Source: Clostridia bacterium
GTDB lineage: Bacteria; Bacillota; Clostridia; UBA1212; DUPL01
NCBI GenBank assembly: GCA_050951325.1
Contig: JBMNIW010000008.1
Coordinates: 96,266-160,265, forward strand
Direction of reading: 5' to 3'
Length of the DNA: 64,000 nucleotides
Shown in pieces: positions 55,487 to 64,000 of the stretch. The position numbers and the translations under genes were made by a program. Within the stretch, counting starts at the first letter, position 1; every line of letters begins with the position of its first letter. Under the pieces are notes generated by a model. The model was given only the letters and a program-made list of their open reading frames with translations, was not told the origin of the DNA and ran no database searches.

Positions 55487-55840
55487 ATGGCGGAACATTT
55501 ACAGTTTTCAGTGATTGGATTTGTGATAGTAATTCTCATAATGGCTGCAATATCATTAATCTTGATGTTGATACCCATAATATTTGGTAAATCAAATAAA
55601 AAGGTTAAAGAGAAAAAAGTAAAGATAGAGAAAGCAAAGGTCGATGAAGTAAAAATACAGGAAACAACACCTGTACAAACATCATTGGTCGAAGATGACA
55701 ATTCAGAATTGATAGCAGTAATAACTGCTGCAATAAGCGCATTTGCTTCAAAAGATCATAAAACCCTTAGGGTTGTATCTTTCAGAAGAGTTGGAGACAA
55801 TTCGCCTGCATGGAGCATGGCTTCCAGAGTAAACAACTGA
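55487..55840 (+). CDS. oadG: Na+-translocating decarboxylase gamma subunit (OadG family)
   Basis: 117 aa; single N-terminal TM, Lys-rich linker, Ala-rich C-terminus typical of OadG. Confidence 0.6.
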   Translation: MAEHLQFSVIGFVIVILIMAAISLILMLIPIIFGKSNKKVKEKKVKIEKAKVDEVKIQETTPVQTSLVEDDNSELIAVITAAISAFASKDHKTLRVVSFRRVGDNSPAWSMASRVNN

Positions 55841-55853
55841 TTTTTGGAGGTAT

Positions 55854-57044
55854 TTGATGAGATTTTTTGAGATTATAATTGGAATATTTGAAGAGTCGGG
55901 TTTTGCTAACATTATTGACAACTTCGTGTGGGATGGAGCAAAAACACTCACTATGATAATTCTTGCCTTTGTACTCATATACCTGGCAATCGCAAAGGAA
56001 TTCGAACCTCTATTGCTTCTTCCAATAGCCTTTGGAATGCTGATAGCAAACCTTCCTCTTGCAAATCTTGCAAGCAAGTATACGCAAGAGGCTCTGGAAC
56101 AGCTTGAAGCAACAGGAGGAGCAAAAGGCTTAATATATTACCTGTACCAAGGTGTCGAACTGGGTATTTATCCACCCCTTATCTTCCTTGGCATAGGTGC
56201 AATGACTGACTTTGGCCCGCTTCTTTCAAACCCCAAGTCGCTGCTGATGGGAGCAGGAGCACAACTGGGTATTTTCCTCACATTTTTTGGAGCATGCGCA
56301 ATTCCCTTTTTCTCACCCCAGGACGCAGGCGCAATAGCAATAATTGGCGGAGCGGATGGTCCGACTGCTATCTATACTGCCAGCATACTCTCGCCTGACT
56401 TATTACCCGCAATTGCAATTGCAGCATACTCATACATGGCATTGGTGCCTGTTATTCAACCACCCATTATGAAAGCCCTGACAACCAAAGAGGAAAGAAT
56501 GGTTGTTATGAAGCAGTCAAGAGAAGTTTCAAAGAGAGAGAAGATAATTTTCCCAATTCTCGTAACTGTTCTTGTATCACTGCTTCTGCCTTCAGCTGCA
56601 ACCCTTGTGGGAATGCTTATGTTTGGCAACCTCGTTAAAGAAAGCGGCGTTGCAGACAGACTTGCAAAAGCCATGTCCAACGAGCTTATGAATATAGTTA
56701 CAATTATGCTTGGCATATCCGTTGGCGCAACTGCCACTGCTGACAGATTTTTAAATCCACAAACTTTGGGAATTCTGGGTCTTGGTATTCTAGCTTTCTC
56801 ATGTGGAACAGCTGGTGGAGTTCTAATTGGAAAGCTGATGTATAAAGCAACTGGCGGAAAAGTAAATCCACTTATTGGTGCTGCTGGAGTATCCGCAGTT
56901 CCAATGGCAGCAAGAGTCGCACATGACGTTGGAAGAAAAGAAAATCCCGACAACTATCTGCTAATGCATGCTATGGGACCAAACGTAGCAGGCGTTATAG
57001 GTTCCACAATAGCTGCAGGTTTACTGATAAATGTTTTAGGCTAA
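55854..57044 (+). CDS. oadB: Na+-translocating decarboxylase beta subunit (OadB/MmdB/GcdB family)
   Basis: 396 aa polytopic membrane protein, collinear with decarboxylase beta subunits. Confidence 0.85.
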   Translation: MMRFFEIIIGIFEESGFANIIDNFVWDGAKTLTMIILAFVLIYLAIAKEFEPLLLLPIAFGMLIANLPLANLASKYTQEALEQLEATGGAKGLIYYLYQGVELGIYPPLIFLGIGAMTDFGPLLSNPKSLLMGAGAQLGIFLTFFGACAIPFFSPQDAGAIAIIGGADGPTAIYTASILSPDLLPAIAIAAYSYMALVPVIQPPIMKALTTKEERMVVMKQSREVSKREKIIFPILVTVLVSLLLPSAATLVGMLMFGNLVKESGVADRLAKAMSNELMNIVTIMLGISVGATATADRFLNPQTLGILGLGILAFSCGTAGGVLIGKLMYKATGGKVNPLIGAAGVSAVPMAARVAHDVGRKENPDNYLLMHAMGPNVAGVIGSTIAAGLLINVLG

Positions 57045-57104: not shown

Positions 57105-57470
57105 ACATCAATTATAGAGATTTATTTCTAAGTTTTTCATTCCTTTAAGCCCATGCTCTTTACTTGGCTACGTCAAGTACTTCTTTTCTGTTTATTGACA
57201 AACAAGCATTTTGCAAGTCTCGTCAATAATTGTAATGTAGTACCAAAGCTACTCCAATACGCCGTATTTTTTTGTTGCCTTTTGAATATACATTTTCAAA
57301 AGGAATAAAGGCAGGTACATATTATGGATAATGAATTGATAATCTCATATCTTGATGATTTGGAAAACTATATAAGTCTTCTATCCTGTGTAAAATGCAA
57401 CAATACAAGACTTGTTGTAATCGAAACATTGAAAGAAAAGATAAAACTCTTAAAGAAGGAACTAATAACA

Positions 57471-57498
57471 GAAAAATCGTGACCCATAGAGGGTCACG
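57471..57498 (-). terminator. intrinsic terminator after rubrerythrin gene
   Basis: CGTGACCC-ataga-GGGTCACG with U-run on minus strand. Confidence 0.55.
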
Positions 57499-57509
57499 AT
57501 ATACACATA

Positions 57510-58052
57510 TTAACCGAAGTATCTCTTTAGCAGGCCTTCGAAGGCTTTGCCATGTCTTGCTTCATCTCTTGCCATTTCATGAACTGTATCATGGATGGCA
57601 TCCAAGTTCAACTCTTTTGCACGCTTTGCGAGATCGGCCTTTCCTGCGGTTGCGCCATTTTCAGCTTCAACACGCATCTCCAAGTTCTTCTTTGTAGAGT
57701 CGGTTACAACTTCTCCAAGCAATTCTGCAAACTTCGCAGCATGCTCAGCTTCCTCATAAGCTGCCTTCTCGTAATAAAGACCAATCTCTGGATAACCTTC
57801 CCTGTGAGCAACTCTTGCCATTGCAAGATACATGCCCACCTCAGTGCACTCTCCCATAAAGTTTGCTCTTAAGTCTTCAATTATGTCCTCTCTTACACCC
57901 TGTGCAATACCAATAACATGCTCTGCAGCCCATGTCCTTTCACCAGACTGCTCCGTGAATCTTGATGCAGGCGCCTTGCACTGTGGGCAAGCATCCGGTG
58001 CGCTTTCTCCTTCATAAACATAACCACAAACTTGACAAACAAACTTTTTCAT
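57510..58052 (-). CDS. reverse rubrerythrin (N-terminal rubredoxin-like Cys4 domain + ferritin-like diiron domain)
   Basis: [23 protein letters not shown] then EXXH diiron helices; ATG 58052 with GGAAGGAG RBS. Confidence 0.85.
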
Positions 58053-58207
58053 AATATCAATCTCCTTCCAAAATTTTAAATATTCCAAATTTTAAAAGGA
58101 TAACGCAATGTCAACAACACAAATGAACTTTGAACATGGGAGGAATTTTCCCGCCACTCAATATTGCTACGTAAATTATTCAGTCCCCTGCCCCAAAGAA
58201 TATTGGA

Positions 58208-58366
58208 TTACTCCTCCATCTCCTCGAACATATCCTTGCCTACGCCACAGTCAGGACAAACCCAATCCTCAGGCAAATCTTCAAACTTTGTACCAGCTGG
58301 AAATTCGCCTTCTCCTTCTGCTTCATCGTATACGTAACCGCATACAGTGCACAAATACTTTTTCAT
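58208..58366 (-). CDS. rubredoxin (52 aa; absent from ORF track because <60 aa)
   Basis: [52 protein letters not shown] — two CxxCG knuckles. Confidence 0.8.
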
Positions 58367-58393
58367 TCTTTTTTCCTCCTTTACGTTTATTCC

Positions 58394-58810
58394 CTACATG
58401 ACCTTGGAACTATTGCAGTCCCTGCACAGACCCTTAAAATATATATTCTTGTCATCAATGCGGAATCCCTTCAATTCCTTTATGTCATCCACATCGAAAC
58501 GGTACTCGAAGTCAAAGACCTTCCCGCATTCAATACATTTAAAGTGTCCATGGTCCTGTAAGTTATACTCGTATCTTATCTCATTCTCCTCAATTGTCAA
58601 CTCTCTAAGCACACCTTTTTCCACAAATGTGTTCAGTGTCTTGTATACGGTTGACTTTGATAAGGAAGGCATTTCATCCTTCAGATCGTTTAGTATCATG
58701 TCGGCAGTCGGATGAACGCGATTCTTCTCGAGGTAATCCAATATTCTCAGCCTTTGGTGTGATACTTTTATTCCTTTCTGTTCCATAAGTTCTGCATGTT
58801 GTTTTGACAT
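58394..58810 (-). CDS. perR: Fur-family peroxide-responsive repressor (PerR-like)
   Basis: 138 aa; HTH, HGHF…CxxCG…C…C motifs; first gene of perR-rubredoxin-rubrerythrin operon. Confidence 0.75.
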   Translation of the reverse strand: MSKQHAELMEQKGIKVSHQRLRILDYLEKNRVHPTADMILNDLKDEMPSLSKSTVYKTLNTFVEKGVLRELTIEENEIRYEYNLQDHGHFKCIECGKVFDFEYRFDVDDIKELKGFRIDDKNIYFKGLCRDCNSSKVM

Positions 58811-58839
58811 TTTGTATCCCTTCTAACACTTTGTATCAA

Positions 58840-58856
58840 GTCGAACTGAGTTCGAC
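58840..58856 (-). promoter_or_regulatory. perfect palindrome GTCGAAC-TGA-GTTCGAC between promoter and RBS of perR (candidate operator)
   Basis: 7-3-7 inverted repeat directly downstream of -10. Confidence 0.35.
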
Positions 58857-58862
58857 ATAGAT

Positions 58863-58890
58863 ATAATATCATAGTAAAAATATTTGTCAA
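58863..58890 (-). promoter_or_regulatory. candidate sigma-A promoter of perR operon (TTGACA-16-TATTAT)
   Basis: Consensus -35 and near-consensus -10 on minus strand. Confidence 0.5.
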
Positions 58891-58904
58891 CCCCTTTTAA
58901 AGAA

Positions 58905-58942
58905 AAAAATGCAAAAAAATTTGGAGACTTAAAAAGTCTCCC
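58905..58942 (-). terminator. intrinsic terminator after GRE-activase gene
   Basis: GGAGACT-taaaaa-AGTCTCC then U-run on minus strand. Confidence 0.5.
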
Positions 58943-58951
58943 TAAAATCCT

Positions 58952-59839
58952 CTAAATTAAACGTGCTCCCAAATTCTCAAGATACCTTTTAGCCTCCAAG
59001 AGATCCTCCTGGTCAGGAACCCACTCTTTTCTACCATTATCCGCATAACCCAACTGTTCACTCTTTGATCCTCCGTAAGTATGATACGGTATCAGCTCAA
59101 CCCCCCTTGCATTCCCAAGGCATCCATAAACTTCGGCAATGAACTCATAGTTGACCTTGTCCATATTGACCCCCTTGACCATAATACATCTTAGTACTGT
59201 CTCTACCTTGTAACTGTCTAGTAGCCAAAGGTTTTTCAATATCCTCTCATAGCCAACACCGGTGTTTTCCTTGTGCCTGTCTTCATTCCCATCCTTCAAG
59301 TCAAACAAGACCAAATCCGCCACCCTTGCAAGTGATGGAACAATATCAGAATCAAAATATCCGCTTGTTTCAACACATGTTGTTATACCGGCCCGTTTTG
59401 CCTTGGAAAGCAGTTCAATAGAAAACTCCTCATTCACTAGCGGTTCGCCACCCGACAGAGTTATGCCACCCATGTCACCGAAAAAATCCCTGTCCTTCAA
59501 AACCTCACCCAACACATCGTCAACAGTCATATCAGTTGCCACCTGTTCAATGGCCTTCGCAGGACAGACCTTCGCACACGAAAGACAAAGCACGCACTTG
59601 TCCCTATGATAATTATGCTCCATGCCATCAAACACATGAGCACTTTTTTCACATATTTTTTCACACATACGACAATGAATGCAGAAATTCTTCACATACA
59701 ATATTTCATTATTCGGCTTAATGCATTCAGGATTGTGGCACCATACGCAGTTCAAAGGACATCCCTTTAAAAATACTGTAGTTCTTACTCCATCGCCATC
59801 ATGAATTGAAAACCTTTGTATGTTCGTAATCAAAGCCAT
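58952..59839 (-). CDS. glycyl-radical-enzyme activating enzyme (radical SAM, with two extra ferredoxin-like Cys clusters)
   Basis: IQRFSIHDGDGVRTTVFLKGCPLNCVWCHN (CX3CX2C) plus CIHCRMCEKIC and CVLCLSCAKVCP clusters; ATG 59839 two nt after GRE stop. Confidence 0.85.
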   Translation of the reverse strand: MALITNIQRFSIHDGDGVRTTVFLKGCPLNCVWCHNPECIKPNNEILYVKNFCIHCRMCEKICEKSAHVFDGMEHNYHRDKCVLCLSCAKVCPAKAIEQVATDMTVDDVLGEVLKDRDFFGDMGGITLSGGEPLVNEEFSIELLSKAKRAGITTCVETSGYFDSDIVPSLARVADLVLFDLKDGNEDRHKENTGVGYERILKNLWLLDSYKVETVLRCIMVKGVNMDKVNYEFIAEVYGCLGNARGVELIPYHTYGGSKSEQLGYADNGRKEWVPDQEDLLEAKRYLENLGARLI

Positions 59840-59841
59840 TT

Positions 59842-61944
59842 CTATACTCCCAGGGTTGTTCTTTCTATTATCATATTCTGCCACTCTTTATTAAGCGTAA
59901 CAAACCTTGCGTTCCATCCTGACACCCTTACAGAAAGGGTCTTGTATTCTTTGGGATTTTCCTGTGCTCTCTTCAGCACATTTGCATCAACCACATCAAT
60001 CTGCATAAAGAATCCTCCCAACTTTACAAACCCTTTAATGAGGGAAACAAGAGCATTGGTTCCGTTCTCCCCCTTTACCGTTGCAGGATACAACTTTATA
60101 TCCAGCGCAGATCCACAGGCCTGCTTTACATGATCTATCTTGCAATAGGACTTTATCGTAGCGGTTGCTCCTAACTCATCCGTACCAGGAGTTGGTGACG
60201 CATTTCCTGAAAGAATATCTCCCTTTCGATACCCAAAAGGAACAGCCGCCCTGAATGGAGCCCATTCAATCTGCCTTCCAAAGGTGCTGATTCCTGCAGG
60301 GAACAGGATATCCACCTTCTTTTCCACCGCATTTACAATATCAGCAAAGTCATCCAGTACTTTGACAGTATAGTAATCCCCATTATCGTCATCATTGCCA
60401 TAGTAGACATATTTGTTAAGAGCAATCTGACGAATAACCTCGTACCCTTCCCAATTCGCCTTAAGTGCCTTCATAAGGTCGTCGAAGGAAATAATCTTGT
60501 CATCAAATACCAATCTTTTAATGGCATATAAACTGTTTCCAACATCGGGGGCTCCTCCAATATGTGGAGATACGACTGTGTATCTTGGACCGCCTTCGTA
60601 ATATGAAGAAGCCTTTTCAATACAGTCTTTTGTAAACAGCGAAGTTACGGAACAAGGAATAACTTCTTTGTACTCATATCCCTTCTCCGTATTCATAAAC
60701 CTTCCCATTACCACATTCTCGTAAATTGCATTTACATCCTGCCTGAGATTCTCTATGAAACAGTTGTATAAATCTTCAAAACTGTCAAAGGTCTTGTACT
60801 CTCCATTCAAATTTAGTGTTTTTGTCAGAAGTATCTGCAAGGCATCAAAGGGCACATAGCAAAAGTACGTCTCACCTGGGATTTGTACTTCCCAGCATCC
60901 ATCGTTAGCAAACTTTCTTGCCTCTTTTGGGTCATATCCCAATTTTTCAAGAGCATTTAATATTAAGGGCTCATTGTATACCGCAACAATACCGCCACCA
61001 TGACGAATTACTTCCGCCACTCTTTTAAGAAGCCTTTCATCCGTATTTTCATTAACCCTGACCGTTATGGGAAAATCACTTATCCCAAGCTCCTCTACAA
61101 TATCAAGAACAAGATATGTAACTTCATTCGCAACCTCTTTATTATCCTCATCCACTCCTGCAAGAATAATGTTCTGGTAATGCTGGGCATCTCCCGAACC
61201 CAATGGTGTTTCTCCTCTAATCCATTCACACCCTTTTATGAAAAAGGAAGCAAGTATTTCTCTGGCTTCATCAAGAGTTAAAACACCTTGATCAAGATCC
61301 TTTTTTAGATAAGGACCCAATATTTTATCTATTCTTCCAATACCAGGCCAGTCTCCGCAAAGGCGCATGAAAGCAAAGGTAAACCACAAACTTTGAACAG
61401 CTTCCTTGAAATTCTCCGCTTTTTTGAAAGGCATATCGCCCATTTCAATAACCTCTGAATACCGCTTGTGCCATATTCTCATTGATTCAATTACATTCAA
61501 AAGACTCTTGAGAAACCGAATCTGTCTTGCCGTTAAGCTCTCATTCTCGAGTTTCTTATGTATCCTTTCTTCATAGGAATCAATGCCTTCGTAAACCACC
61601 CTGTCAAAACCGGAAGTCAGATGGCTTACACTATGAAAGATCGGAGAACCTTTGTAGGTTGCAGGTATGCAGTGATTAATTGACAGCCCCAGGGATGCGC
61701 TTCCGTGTACAAGTTCGTACTCACATACCCTTATTGGTGCTTTTTCTGCAATTTCCCTTATTGCAATATCATACTTGTCTATATCAGACAAGTTCTCAAA
61801 CCCCTCTATATGATCAAGGGCAACCGCTGTATTTTTCATGGCATCGTCGCCATATTTGCCATTCATGGATTCATATGCAAATAATCTGGTTGCTTCACTA
61901 AGTCTTATAGGTCTTTCCTCATCCGCTGCAGTATAGAATATCAT
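59842..61944 (-). CDS. glycyl radical enzyme, compact (~700 aa) eliminase-type (single active-site Cys in GCWE loop; not a PFL)
   Basis: C-terminal glycyl radical motif SVRVSGWNARF; Cys loop FANDGCWEV (C-x-E); no Cys-Cys pair. Confidence 0.85.
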   Translation of the reverse strand: MIFYTAADEERPIRLSEATRLFAYESMNGKYGDDAMKNTAVALDHIEGFENLSDIDKYDIAIREIAEKAPIRVCEYELVHGSASLGLSINHCIPATYKGSPIFHSVSHLTSGFDRVVYEGIDSYEERIHKKLENESLTARQIRFLKSLLNVIESMRIWHKRYSEVIEMGDMPFKKAENFKEAVQSLWFTFAFMRLCGDWPGIGRIDKILGPYLKKDLDQGVLTLDEAREILASFFIKGCEWIRGETPLGSGDAQHYQNIILAGVDEDNKEVANEVTYLVLDIVEELGISDFPITVRVNENTDERLLKRVAEVIRHGGGIVAVYNEPLILNALEKLGYDPKEARKFANDGCWEVQIPGETYFCYVPFDALQILLTKTLNLNGEYKTFDSFEDLYNCFIENLRQDVNAIYENVVMGRFMNTEKGYEYKEVIPCSVTSLFTKDCIEKASSYYEGGPRYTVVSPHIGGAPDVGNSLYAIKRLVFDDKIISFDDLMKALKANWEGYEVIRQIALNKYVYYGNDDDNGDYYTVKVLDDFADIVNAVEKKVDILFPAGISTFGRQIEWAPFRAAVPFGYRKGDILSGNASPTPGTDELGATATIKSYCKIDHVKQACGSALDIKLYPATVKGENGTNALVSLIKGFVKLGGFFMQIDVVDANVLKRAQENPKEYKTLSVRVSGWNARFVTLNKEWQNMIIERTTLGV

Positions 61945-62092
61945 AAATACCACCTTTTAAATCTTCCACTATATATTATCACAGAAAAGTGACATTGTCA
62001 CAGAACTTTTTTTGATATGTACATATAATAGCTGTGGAACTGCTCTTTTCATATTTATATATGTATCCTCCATTAATAGATCATATATATTG

Positions 62093-62128
62093 CTGCCTGC
62101 CTAACGAAAAAGGCAGGCAGTTGCCATG
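62093..62128. promoter_or_regulatory. perfect 9-bp inverted repeat CTGCCTGCC-N10-GGCAGGCAG in divergent promoter region
   Basis: Lies between GRE operon start (61944, minus) and cdr start (62179, plus); not followed by U-run. Confidence 0.3.
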
Positions 62129-62178
62129 AAAATAATGATGGGGGTATAATATAGAAAAAGAAGGATGGAGGATTGTTT

Positions 62179-63861
62179 ATGAAGGTATTGATAGTTGGCG
62201 GTGTTGCAGGAGGAGCCTCCTGTGCGGCAAGGTTAAGAAGACTTGATGAGAGTGCCGAGATAATCATGTTCGAACGCGGCGAATACATTTCCTATGCAAA
62301 CTGTGGTCTTCCCTATTACATTGGAGAGAAAATAAAAAGGAAATCCGACCTTACACTGCAGACACCCGAGAGTTTCAAAAGAAGATTCAATGTGGATGTA
62401 AGGATTTTAAATGAAGTTGTATCAATCAACAGAGAAGATAAAAAGGTGGTTGTAAAGGATATAAGAACCAACGAAATGTATGAGGAATCCTATGACAAGC
62501 TGGTACTTTCCATGGGTGCAAAACCCTTCAAACCACCCATAAAAGGTATTGATTTGCCCAATTGCTTTACACTAAGGACTGTTCCCGACACCTTTAGAAT
62601 AAAAGAATATATCCAGAATAATAACCCAAAATCCGCTGTTGTTGTAGGCGGCGGATACATTGGCATTGAGATGGCGGAGAATTTAAAGGAAGCTGGTCTT
62701 GATGTCATTCTTATCGAACTTTCCGACCATTTGCTACCCCCTCTGGACTTTGACATGGCCTGCGATGTACACAAATATGTAAGGCAAAATGGAATCAACC
62801 TCATGCTGAACAACGGTGTCAGGGAAATAGAAGAAATTGAAGACGGTCTTCTTGTTAAACTTGACAAGTGCAAAATCCAAACTGACATGGTTATACTTTG
62901 CGTAGGAGTAAGACCCGAGTCGGATATAGCAAAGGAAGCAAATCTGCAAATCAATGAAAGAGGTTCAATTATTGTAAACGACAACATGCTGACAAGCGAT
63001 CCGGACATATATGCTGTAGGAGATGCGGTGGTTGTTACAAACTTCATCACCAAAAAAGACGCCTTTATTCCTTTGGCTAGTCCTGCAAACAAGCAAGGCA
63101 GGATTGCAGCAAATAACATTTGCGGGCATAACAGCAGATACGAAGGAACATTAGGTTCCAGCATAGTCAAACTTTTTGACATGACAATTGCCACCACAGG
63201 AGCGAATGAAAGCGAGGCAAAAGCAAGCAGCCTGAATTACGATAAGGTTTTTTTGTATTCAAATTCTCATGCAAGCTACTATCCTGGTGCAACACCCATG
63301 TCTATTAAAGTTCTGTTTGACAAGGATACAGGAAAAATACTAGGTGCACAGATAGTTGGTTTTGATGGAGTGGACAAGAGATGTGACGTTCTTGCAACAG
63401 CAATTAGATTCGGCGCAACATACAAGGATTTGACCAACCTCGAACTGTGCTACGCTCCCCCTTTTGGTTCAGCAAAAGACCCTGTCAACTTTGCAGGTTA
63501 TGTAATCGAAAACATACAGAACGGTCTTGTGAAGAACTTCCACTGGCATGATGTAGACAAACTGCCCAGGGACGGGAGTGTTACACTGCTTGATGTAAGG
63601 ACCAAAAGAGAATTTGAGTATGGAAGAATTGATGGATTTGTCAATATTGAGCTTGACAGTCTGAGAGAAAACATTGACAAACTTGACAAATCAAAACCTA
63701 TATATGTACACTGCCACAGCGGACTTAGAAGCTATATTGCATGCAGAATACTTGCTGAAAACGGCTTTGAAGCCTATAACCTCAGCGGAGGCTACAGGCT
63801 CTATCAGACTGTAATGTATGAAAAACAGCTGCCTGACTTTCCTTGCTATCCTAAAGATTAG
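62179..63861 (+). CDS. CoA-disulfide reductase/NADH oxidase-family flavoprotein with C-terminal rhodanese domain (persulfide-reductase-like)
   Basis: FAD fold VLIVGGVAGGASCAARL, redox Cys in SYANCGLPYYIG, rhodanese active-site loop HCHSGLRS. Confidence 0.8.
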   Translation: MKVLIVGGVAGGASCAARLRRLDESAEIIMFERGEYISYANCGLPYYIGEKIKRKSDLTLQTPESFKRRFNVDVRILNEVVSINREDKKVVVKDIRTNEMYEESYDKLVLSMGAKPFKPPIKGIDLPNCFTLRTVPDTFRIKEYIQNNNPKSAVVVGGGYIGIEMAENLKEAGLDVILIELSDHLLPPLDFDMACDVHKYVRQNGINLMLNNGVREIEEIEDGLLVKLDKCKIQTDMVILCVGVRPESDIAKEANLQINERGSIIVNDNMLTSDPDIYAVGDAVVVTNFITKKDAFIPLASPANKQGRIAANNICGHNSRYEGTLGSSIVKLFDMTIATTGANESEAKASSLNYDKVFLYSNSHASYYPGATPMSIKVLFDKDTGKILGAQIVGFDGVDKRCDVLATAIRFGATYKDLTNLELCYAPPFGSAKDPVNFAGYVIENIQNGLVKNFHWHDVDKLPRDGSVTLLDVRTKREFEYGRIDGFVNIELDSLRENIDKLDKSKPIYVHCHSGLRSYIACRILAENGFEAYNLSGGYRLYQTVMYEKQLPDFPCYPKD

Positions 63862-64000
63862 ACAGGTCTGTATGCAAACAAAAAGTCCACCACCGGCTCT
63901 GAAAAAGGTTGAATGCTTTGGATGCGGTGGTCGGAACCGCAATCATATCTGAAATGGTTTGTGGAAGACACCTTGCCGCCATATATGAAGGTGTGGTCTG

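Follow-up and report, generated by a model that had tools for sequence, protein, structure and literature searches.

The window analyzed here, a stretch of 64,000 nucleotides from a Clostridia bacterium (contig JBMNIW010000008.1, positions 96,266 to 160,265, forward strand), encodes on its minus strand a compact glycyl radical enzyme (GRE) and, next to it, the radical S-adenosylmethionine (SAM) enzyme that activates it. Upstream and divergently transcribed is a gene for a flavoprotein reductase with a rhodanese domain. The two minus-strand genes probably form an orphan operon for an eliminase-type GRE whose function is independent of the reductase beside it. The features of this operon, given as positions of the window with the evidence for each in brackets, are as follows.

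59842..61944, minus strand: compact GRE of 700 amino acids (aa), C-W-E type (open reading frame [ORF], Pfam, AlphaFold2 [AF2] model, Foldseek)
59914..59928, minus strand: glycyl radical motif R673-V-S-G676-W677 (read from the sequence)
60889..60900, minus strand: Cys loop G349-C350-W351-E352, with the thiyl radical Cys and the general-base Glu (aligns to C433-V-E435 of glycerol dehydratase [GD])
61621..61623, minus strand: His108, equivalent of GD His164 (profile alignment, SVSH versus GVGH164 of GD)
58952..59839, minus strand: GRE-activating radical SAM enzyme, 295 aa (TIGR02494; GGGAG ribosome-binding site at ATG 59839)
59738..59761, minus strand: radical SAM cluster motif C27-x3-C31-x2-C34 (translation; Pfam Radical_SAM, Fer4_12)
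59561..59683, minus strand: two ferredoxin-like CX2CX2CX3C motifs for auxiliary [4Fe-4S] clusters (translation; Pfam Fer4, Fer4_7, Fer4_21)
58923..58941, minus strand: intrinsic terminator-like hairpin with T-run at the end of the GRE-activase operon (terminator scan, sequence read)

The compact glycyl radical enzyme, its activase, and its family

The longest ORF of the GRE gene covers 59842..61953(-), with an upstream stop codon that excludes an N-terminal extension. The true start is likely the ATG at 61944 behind AAGGTGG, which gives 700 aa and agrees with the public protein P0001 of 700 aa. The product matched the Pfam families PFL-like (pyruvate formate-lyase-like, PF02901; 1.5e-85) and Gly_radical (PF01228; 1.9e-22), and its RVSGW satisfies the RVxG[FWY] motif of the PFL-like branch of the GRE superfamily. 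In the alignment of the compact family to which the enzyme belongs, Gly676, the GCWE loop, and His108 were invariant and Arg673 and Trp677 nearly so, and the GCWE loop was also common to sister C-W-E clades. The catalytic Cys is a single one, Cys350, in contrast to the adjacent Cys pair of PFL, and a single-Cys C-X-E loop is a feature of the GRE 1,2-eliminase/isomerase class (PMC13450708). An earlier note on this DNA, made from the letters alone, had described a GRE of about 700 aa with RVSGW and GCWE, 80 to 150 aa shorter than the characterized members. Such a protein is indeed present at 59842-61944(-) with 700 aa, and it was measured to be 87 to 146 aa shorter than GD (787 aa), HypD (789 aa), IslA (830 aa), and CutC. 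This compactness is real because the homologues all have about 700 to 715 aa.

The activase reached 293.6 bits with TIGR02494 (PFLE_PFLC; cut-off, 174.35) and scored under every substrate-specific activase equivalog of NCBIfam. In the 295-aa protein, the CX3CX2C motif comprises C27, C31, and C34, the two CX2CX2CX3C motifs extend from C53 to C63 and from C82 to C92, and the Fer4, Fer4_7, and Fer4_21 matches span residues 66 to 113 of the long ORF. The two extra Fe-S clusters that had been claimed for the activase could thus be read in the sequence; they are ordinary for activases of the PFL2-type GRE class. Together, the motifs and TIGR02494 support a GRE of the eliminase type, with a single Cys in C-X-E, that has a three-cluster activase of its own. 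Four of five descriptive claims of the earlier note stood, and the one that fell was an overlap of the activase gene with the GRE gene. This overlap exists only for the longest ORF of the activase, which starts with the GTG at 59884. Because the TIGR02494 model begins at residue 19 of this ORF, the ATG at 59839, with its ribosome-binding site, is located 2 nt past the GRE stop codon, and the orthologues in two other loci (L001, a relative, and L088, a public contig of the same species) were called with 295 aa, the two genes do not overlap.

The junction of both genes showed another peculiarity when the window was compared with L088. The GRE genes differ at 3 of 2103 nt, and the reductase gene and the intergenic region are near-identical. 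Throughout the whole activase gene (58952-59839, compared with 5155-6042 of L088), 139 of 888 nt differ (about 15%; 85.8% identity at the amino acid level). The switch in identity sits at most about 50 nt from the GRE stop codon, which indicates that recombination took place where the two genes meet or that a metagenome assembly is chimeric.

Among the homologues, members of 700 to 715 aa that were 57 to 81% identical to the GRE occurred in more than 120 clusters at 90% identity. The boundary of the family was sharp when 1.84 billion representatives were searched exhaustively with HMMER. About 20 clusters at 50% identity aligned end to end with 41 to 55% identity and 480 to 860 bits; beyond these, identity was about 33% and no score exceeded 310 bits, and the best-scoring stretch mostly began near residue 100 to 260. 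A relative of the GRE is encoded in at least 471 GTDB species genomes, scanned with one genome per species. The carriers are nearly all metagenome-assembled genomes of Clostridia, obtained from anaerobic digesters and from the guts of ruminants, birds, rabbits, and humans, and at least one isolate, Fumia xinanensis NSJ-33 (locus L064), is a cultured carrier. As delimited by these sequence searches, the compact GREs are a discrete, widespread, and uncharacterized family, and a literature search found no paper that characterizes the clade.

None of the curated models accepted the GRE. The scores were 324 bits with TIGR01774 (PFL2-3; cut-off, 678.2; 309 bits for the family representative P0121), 285.8 with NF043068 (HypD; 1100), which was the top NCBIfam equivalog, 251 with the PflD equivalog (1109), 246.8 with NF048011 (HpsG; 1000), 227.5 with TIGR04394 (CutC; 1050), 214 with the HpfG equivalog (1000), and 89.9 with TIGR01255 (PFL; 994). 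For HypD, PflD, HpsG, HpfG, and CutC, this means 214 to 286 bits against cut-offs of 1000 to 1109, so that no characterized clade holds the GRE.

In the family alignment, the compact GREs belong to a wider group together with uncharacterized GREs of 737 to 782 aa (representatives P0150, P0152, P0156, P0159, P0162 to P0164, P0167, P0170, and P0176). Both have D-G-C-W-E, P-G-T-x-F-x-Y, and G-T-F-E, in contrast to the C-V-E and R-A-G-Y of classical eliminase-like sequences. Six of these sister representatives were scanned, and none scored above any NCBIfam cut-off. Judged by their motifs and scores, the C-W-E GREs seem to form an entire branch of the GRE tree that has yet to be explored. Tentatively, and with the odds somewhat against it, the enzymes of about 700 aa and their sisters of 737 to 782 aa may represent an eliminase scaffold reduced to the minimum, whose chemistry or class of substrate would be new to the superfamily.

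Fold and active site compared with characterized eliminases

An AF2 model of the GRE, built on 41 family members, had a pLDDT of 90.6 and a pTM of 0.90. Foldseek placed it at similar distances from propanediol dehydratase (PD), GD, Archaeoglobus Pfl2, HypD, and CutC, with TMq values of 0.81 to 0.85 and 20 to 24% identity, and the C-S lyases superposed slightly worse, with 0.77 to 0.79 as the lowest values among the eliminases. The residues were compared by profile alignments to GD (3.8e-99) and HypD; the comparison with IslA, CutC, and PflD used the curated HMM scores and extrapolated alignment positions.

Kept with respect to GD are H108 (GD H164), Y256-Q-N (GD Y339-Q-N), C350 and E352, and G676. 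Of the residues His164, Ser282, Asp447, and Tyr640 that form the substrate set of GD, only the His is retained: S282 is replaced by Gly201, D447 by Tyr363, and Y640 by Ser553, and H108, Gly201, Tyr363, and Ser553 are all invariant within the compact family. Likewise, D278 of HypD corresponds to Pro200. In this alignment, the residues with which GD/PD and HypD contact their substrates are therefore replaced, and the GRE, which also misses the curated cut-offs, does not fall squarely within a characterized clade. The earlier note had left the substrate unassigned, and both results agree with this. The compact family possesses invariant residues of its own, W199, D252, Q254, T359, F361, Y363, H461, D467, N470, and the S553-T-F-G-R557 stretch, and the family-specific polar residues are retained even in its most divergent members.

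In the alignment with the C-V-E enzymes, the compact family has one large gap immediately ahead of barrel strand 1, where about 62 residues (roughly 78 to 154 of GD) are absent, and further deletions comprise 9 residues at the N terminus and 8 after residue 380. The C-W-E sisters also do not have most of the 62-residue block, and the compact family additionally misses 21 residues after residue 246. The family thus illustrates from nature which parts of a GRE scaffold can be dispensed with.

The GRE may alternatively be a trimmed orthologue of a known eliminase, a glycerol, 1,2-propanediol, or hydroxyproline dehydratase, which kept its substrate. The best PDB profile match was the B12-independent GD mentioned above, and the top Foldseek matches were propanediol dehydratases. 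GD of C. butyricum (PDB 1R8W/1R9D) and PD (R. inulinivorans 5I2G; 9RCO) share the ten-stranded barrel with the model (TMq, 0.83 to 0.85), the glycyl loop, the single-Cys C-X-E loop, the His at GD position 164, the Y-Q-N strand, and an activase with two auxiliary clusters, and a module without a transporter would fit small membrane-permeant diols. Identity to GD and PD is only 22 to 23%, however, and at 22 to 24% the distance to all eliminases is equal; the block before strand 1 is absent, C-W-E replaces C-V-E, and Gly, Tyr, and Ser occupy the positions of S282, D447, and Y640. Of HypD (6VXC), HpyG (8ID1), and HpzG (8IOF), HpyG was the best single-sequence PDB match (1.8e-74), and the GRE shares with HypD the Trp before the position of Asp278, at which it carries a Pro itself; its score of 286 bits is far from the 1100 of the HypD model. 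Every other curated cut-off is also missed widely, and no microcompartment, dha/pdu, 1,3-propanediol dehydrogenase, or proC/P5C (pyrroline-5-carboxylate) reductase genes recur nearby. An orthologue with a known substrate is thus unlikely.

The GRE isomerases PflD/YbiW (8ID0, 8ID7), which cleave a C-O bond of anhydro-sugar phosphates, have similar fold scores and exemplify C-X-E chemistry on a carbohydrate-derived substrate (PMC13450708). The neighborhoods of the compact family also lean weakly toward carbohydrate genes. Distinct from PflD are the score of 251 bits against a cut-off of 1109 and the missing conserved phosphotransferase system, kinase, and aldolase partners.

Gene neighborhood and the reductase

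The context of the family was evaluated in a sample of 87 loci, about 80 of them at the species level, in which ORFs were called and clustered. The activase gene was the next gene after the GRE gene in 54 of the 70 loci with sufficient room, and tblastn detected an activase in 68 loci. A divergent upstream gene for an AraC-family regulator of about 270 aa (Pfam HTH_18, HTH_AraC) was present in 37 of 67 loci and formed a coherent orthologous group. No other recurrent partner appeared among the 87 clustered loci, and in a Pfam census of 68 operonic neighbors, no family occurred in more than 4 of the 68. A weak excess of carbohydrate-related families was visible near the GRE genes (GFO/IDH/MocA, GH109, GH78, polysaccharide deacetylase, DUF4838, NAGLU, ThuA, GlcNAc 2-epimerase, and URO-D). 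Long same-strand "operons" in L021, L027, L048, and L051 were rejected as candidates, the genes being housekeeping ones (ThrRS, DXS, NAD kinase, MnmA, and AsnB). The neighborhood therefore gives no substrate for the compact GREs. Since the activase and the AraC regulator are the sole recurrent partners, regulator, enzyme, and activase constitute an autonomous module, and this fits a substrate without a dedicated transporter and a product that is absorbed by general metabolism.

A homology search did not find the AraC regulator of the family in the window. The gene is missing in this lineage, and the operon is located between the reductase gene and a perR-rubredoxin-rubrerythrin unit. These neighbors are as follows.

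62179..63861, plus strand: coenzyme A (CoA)-disulfide/persulfide reductase with C-terminal rhodanese domain, CoADR-RHD (Pfam Pyr_redox_2, Pyr_redox_dim, Rhodanese; NF010037)
58394..58810, minus strand: PerR-like regulator of the Fur family (Pfam FUR; PerR models of NCBIfam best, below their cut-offs)
58207..58365, minus strand: rubredoxin, 52 aa (read from the sequence; under the default length for listing ORFs)
57510..58052, minus strand: reverse rubrerythrin, 180 aa (Pfam RUBY_RBDX N-terminal, Rubrerythrin C-terminal)

The start of the reductase gene is most likely the ATG at 62179 (560 aa) and not the TTG at 62173. The protein scored 396 bits with NF010037 (cut-off, 394) and, with 543.6 bits, just under the cut-off of 578.8 of TIGR03385. 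The redox Cys is encoded at 62302-62304 (SYANC) and the rhodanese Cys at 63712-63714 (VHCHSGLR). The CoADR-RHD of B. anthracis (3ICR) matched over the full length (5e-190) with both catalytic cysteines kept, and Npsr of Shewanella (3NTA) and CoAPR of E. faecalis (8A56), which have the same architecture, were matched as well. The earlier note had correctly named the divergent neighbor a CoADR-family flavoprotein with a rhodanese domain, and by these matches it can be classed as an ordinary CoADR-RHD member. Two minor observations concern the same gene. In L088 (1133-2815), the ORF calls divide it into pieces of 352 and 166 aa, and in the window it is one intact gene; the alignment of both contains 2 mismatches and no internal gap that would account for the split. 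An Rfam scan of 57300-64000 for riboswitches and leader RNAs returned only a subthreshold match to V_AS7 at 62198-62366(-) within the reductase coding sequence (65 bits versus a gathering score of 90; E = 6e-11), antisense to the FAD-binding N terminus and most likely due to conserved coding sequence and not to an RNA gene.

Between the start codons of the reductase and GRE genes, the following elements were found.

61945..62172, no strand: divergent intergenic region with back-to-back predicted promoters (promoter scan)
61989..62001, no strand: 13-bp palindrome GTGACAtTGTCAC over the predicted −35 site of the GRE gene, candidate operator (inverted-repeat search)
62093..62120, no strand: perfect 10-bp stem (62093-62102/62111-62120) with an 8-nt loop, abutting the −35 site of the reductase gene (inverted-repeat search)

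The reductase gene has a predicted promoter, TTGCCA-18-TATAAT (11 of 12 positions), at 62121-62150, and the minus-strand candidates at 62001-61973 and 61995-61968 are weaker. The perfect 9-bp inverted repeat that had been reported for the shared promoter region exists as the pair 62065-62073/62165-62173, although not as the sole element beside the 10-bp stem and the 13-bp palindrome; its right arm is the ribosome-binding site of the reductase gene, and the pair may be fortuitous. GTGACAtTGTCAC is identical in L001, occurs once in the window, and is absent from L087, another relative; as an operator, it could plausibly be bound by whatever has taken the place of the AraC regulator. The 10-bp stem has about −21 kcal/mol (z = −4.4). 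In L001 it is kept with a compensatory change from G:C to A:T and a 6-nt loop, which favors a hairpin over a protein site with fixed spacing. It does not possess a proper U-tail and is outside both transcripts if the predicted promoters are used. When the sequences were compared, none of these intergenic elements was found in L087. An operator common to the GRE, reductase, and perR promoters was not found either, and GTGACAtTGTCAC and GTCGAACnnnGTTCGAC occur once each in the window. A 27-codon ORF on the minus strand of the intergenic region was discarded; it is not kept in L001.

The reductase neighbor had led to the suggestion of a sulfur-containing substrate or product. The GRE would then be a C-S lyase or another sulfur-compound enzyme, and the divergent CoA-persulfide reductase/rhodanese would handle its persulfide, sulfite, or thiol product. 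Both genes are indeed adjacent and divergent in the window and in L001 (GRE, 81% identical), the intergenic elements are kept between these two loci, and the invariant Arg557 could bind an anion. A tblastn search with the reductase against the 87 loci, however, matched only the window and L001. L087 (GRE, 72% identical), which was added later, contains the reductase gene with a GNAT gene between it and the GRE gene, and has neither of the two intergenic palindromes. In the other species-level loci, about 78, tblastn revealed no CoADR-RHD at distances of up to 10 kb from the GRE gene, so that the pairing is limited to the window, L001, and L087 and not conserved across the GRE family.

The same three loci are the only sampled ones with PerR and rubrerythrin genes near the GRE gene. 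Their gene order is CoADR-RHD, GRE, activase, DUF4838 (not in the window), PerR, rubredoxin, and reverse rubrerythrin, the contig of L087 stopping just past the rubredoxin gene. The rubredoxin genes of L001 and L087 hold the same position, and the perR-rubredoxin-rubrerythrin unit of the window is alike. In L001 and L088, a flavodiiron gene precedes the CoADR-RHD gene. PerR, reverse rubrerythrin, rubredoxin, and flavodiiron proteins are the classic clostridial oxidative-stress gene set, and the cluster around the GRE gene in the window reads as an oxidative-stress island. The reductase gene is monocistronic because it has its own promoter and the next gene in L001 is convergent. As the adjacency is restricted to three genomes, within a stress gene cluster and with a separate promoter for the reductase, the hint at a sulfur substrate is unsupported; we conclude that the adjacency is lineage specific and says nothing reliable on such a substrate.

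The enzyme itself also differs from the C-S lyases IslA, IseG, and HpsG, with which it shares the GRE eliminase fold and the C-X-E loop. The HpsG and HpfG models, each with a cut-off of 1000 bits, gave 247 and 214, and no sulfite reductase or taurine genes are nearby. The Arg/Gln/Arg triad for sulfonate binding maps to His104 (variable), His108, and Pro549, an approximate position by ungapped extrapolation that weighs less than the HpsG score; the triad is specific to the IseG cluster (PMC6453916). A sulfur-compound enzyme is decidedly improbable.

Its location between the CoADR-RHD gene and the perR-rubredoxin-rubrerythrin unit in three related genomes, together with the loss of the AraC regulator of other species, may also mean that the GRE operon is part of a redox-stress response regulated by PerR or peroxide and repairs or replaces an oxygen-damaged function. 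GREs are themselves destroyed by oxygen, the compact family is not linked to stress genes elsewhere, and the perR gene is isolated by the terminator behind the activase gene and by a strong predicted promoter of its own past it (TTGACA-16-TATTAT, 58890-58863), the palindrome of which occurs only once in the window. Such a role is very improbable. A formate-lyase acting on pyruvate or another 2-ketoacid, as the database name "pyruvate formate lyase family protein" and the Pfam PFL-like domain might imply, is extremely unlikely given a single Cys followed by x-Glu instead of an adjacent Cys pair, 90 of the required 994 bits with TIGR01255, PFL structures that match only the C-terminal 190 residues or so, and a three-cluster activase of the PFL2 type.

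Proposed reaction, its meaning, and further features

The preferred reading remains that of an autonomous GRE operon without a functional tie to the reductase. Its enzyme is best read as a C-X-E eliminase with a new substrate, in which it probably cleaves a C-O bond. The steps of the reaction are inferred from the characterized GRE eliminases (PMC13450708), whereas the gene content, motifs, fold, family membership and boundaries, and context statistics were observed. The activase, with its SAM-binding [4Fe-4S] cluster and two ferredoxin-like clusters, would take a hydrogen atom from Gly676 to generate the stable glycyl radical. In each turnover, the radical would move from Gly676 to Cys350, and the thiyl radical of Cys350 would take a hydrogen atom from the substrate at a carbon with a hydroxyl. 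This hydroxyl would be deprotonated by Glu352 of the C-W-E loop, and the neighboring leaving group, most probably a hydroxyl or ether oxygen, would depart with the aid of His108. The product radical would finally regain a hydrogen atom from Cys350. C-O cleavage is favored because the His is conserved, the pocket residues are polar, and the module includes an AraC regulator and no transporter, and this preference is weak. Our guess for the substrate is a small polar hydroxylated compound (a diol, a polyol, or a molecule derived from a sugar) for which neither a transporter nor a downstream enzyme has to be dedicated.

Several points weigh against this assignment. Most PFL2-type GREs, among them isomerases and C-N and C-S lyases, also have the His of position 108 and the C-X-E loop, and the residue roles rest on the alignment to GD and HypD and not on model coordinates. 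The invariant Arg557 is near the active-site strand and could bind an anionic group, for instance a carboxylate, phosphate, or sulfonate. The CoADR-RHD gene is located beside the operon in three genomes at 70 to 83% identity, and two intergenic elements are kept between the window and L001, which may reflect a local regulatory link between reductase and GRE.

One neighbor is of interest for the sub-lineage of the window. In L001 (11002-12663) and L087 (4825-6471), a DUF4838 gene follows 9 to 22 nt past the activase gene on the same strand, with a weak GH67N match in L087; the gene is absent in the window. A carbohydrate link by way of DUF4838 is possible for this sub-lineage.

If the C-W-E GREs are indeed a new functional class, it would be present in hundreds of gut and digester Clostridia and may serve, for example, to cleave a metabolite that is abundant in the gut, derived from a sugar or not, and that is sensed by the co-inherited AraC regulator. 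To our knowledge, every assigned GRE eliminase has exposed a host- or industry-relevant anaerobic pathway, among them those to trimethylamine and H2S, hydroxyproline use, and anhydroglycolysis. Whole GRE clades are still untested according to a 2026 review (PMC13450708). The portable module of regulator, enzyme, and activase and the well-delimited family make the compact GREs a tractable target for the assignment of a function, a reasonable and not an exceptional one since many GRE clades are unassigned. The sulfur neighbor, as a clue that is not conserved, should not guide the screening of substrates.

Two further features of the window concern the region downstream of the operon. Just past the −10 site of the perR gene, a perfect 7-3-7 palindrome, GTCGAACtgaGTTCGAC, is located at 58840-58856. 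It is unique in the window, partly kept in L001, and may act as an operator for autoregulation; apart from the wrong spacing, it is similar to a LexA/Cheo box. Beyond the rubrerythrin gene, at 55487-57044(+), genes for the gamma and beta subunits of a Na+-translocating decarboxylase of the oxaloacetate type follow, which are unrelated to the GRE.

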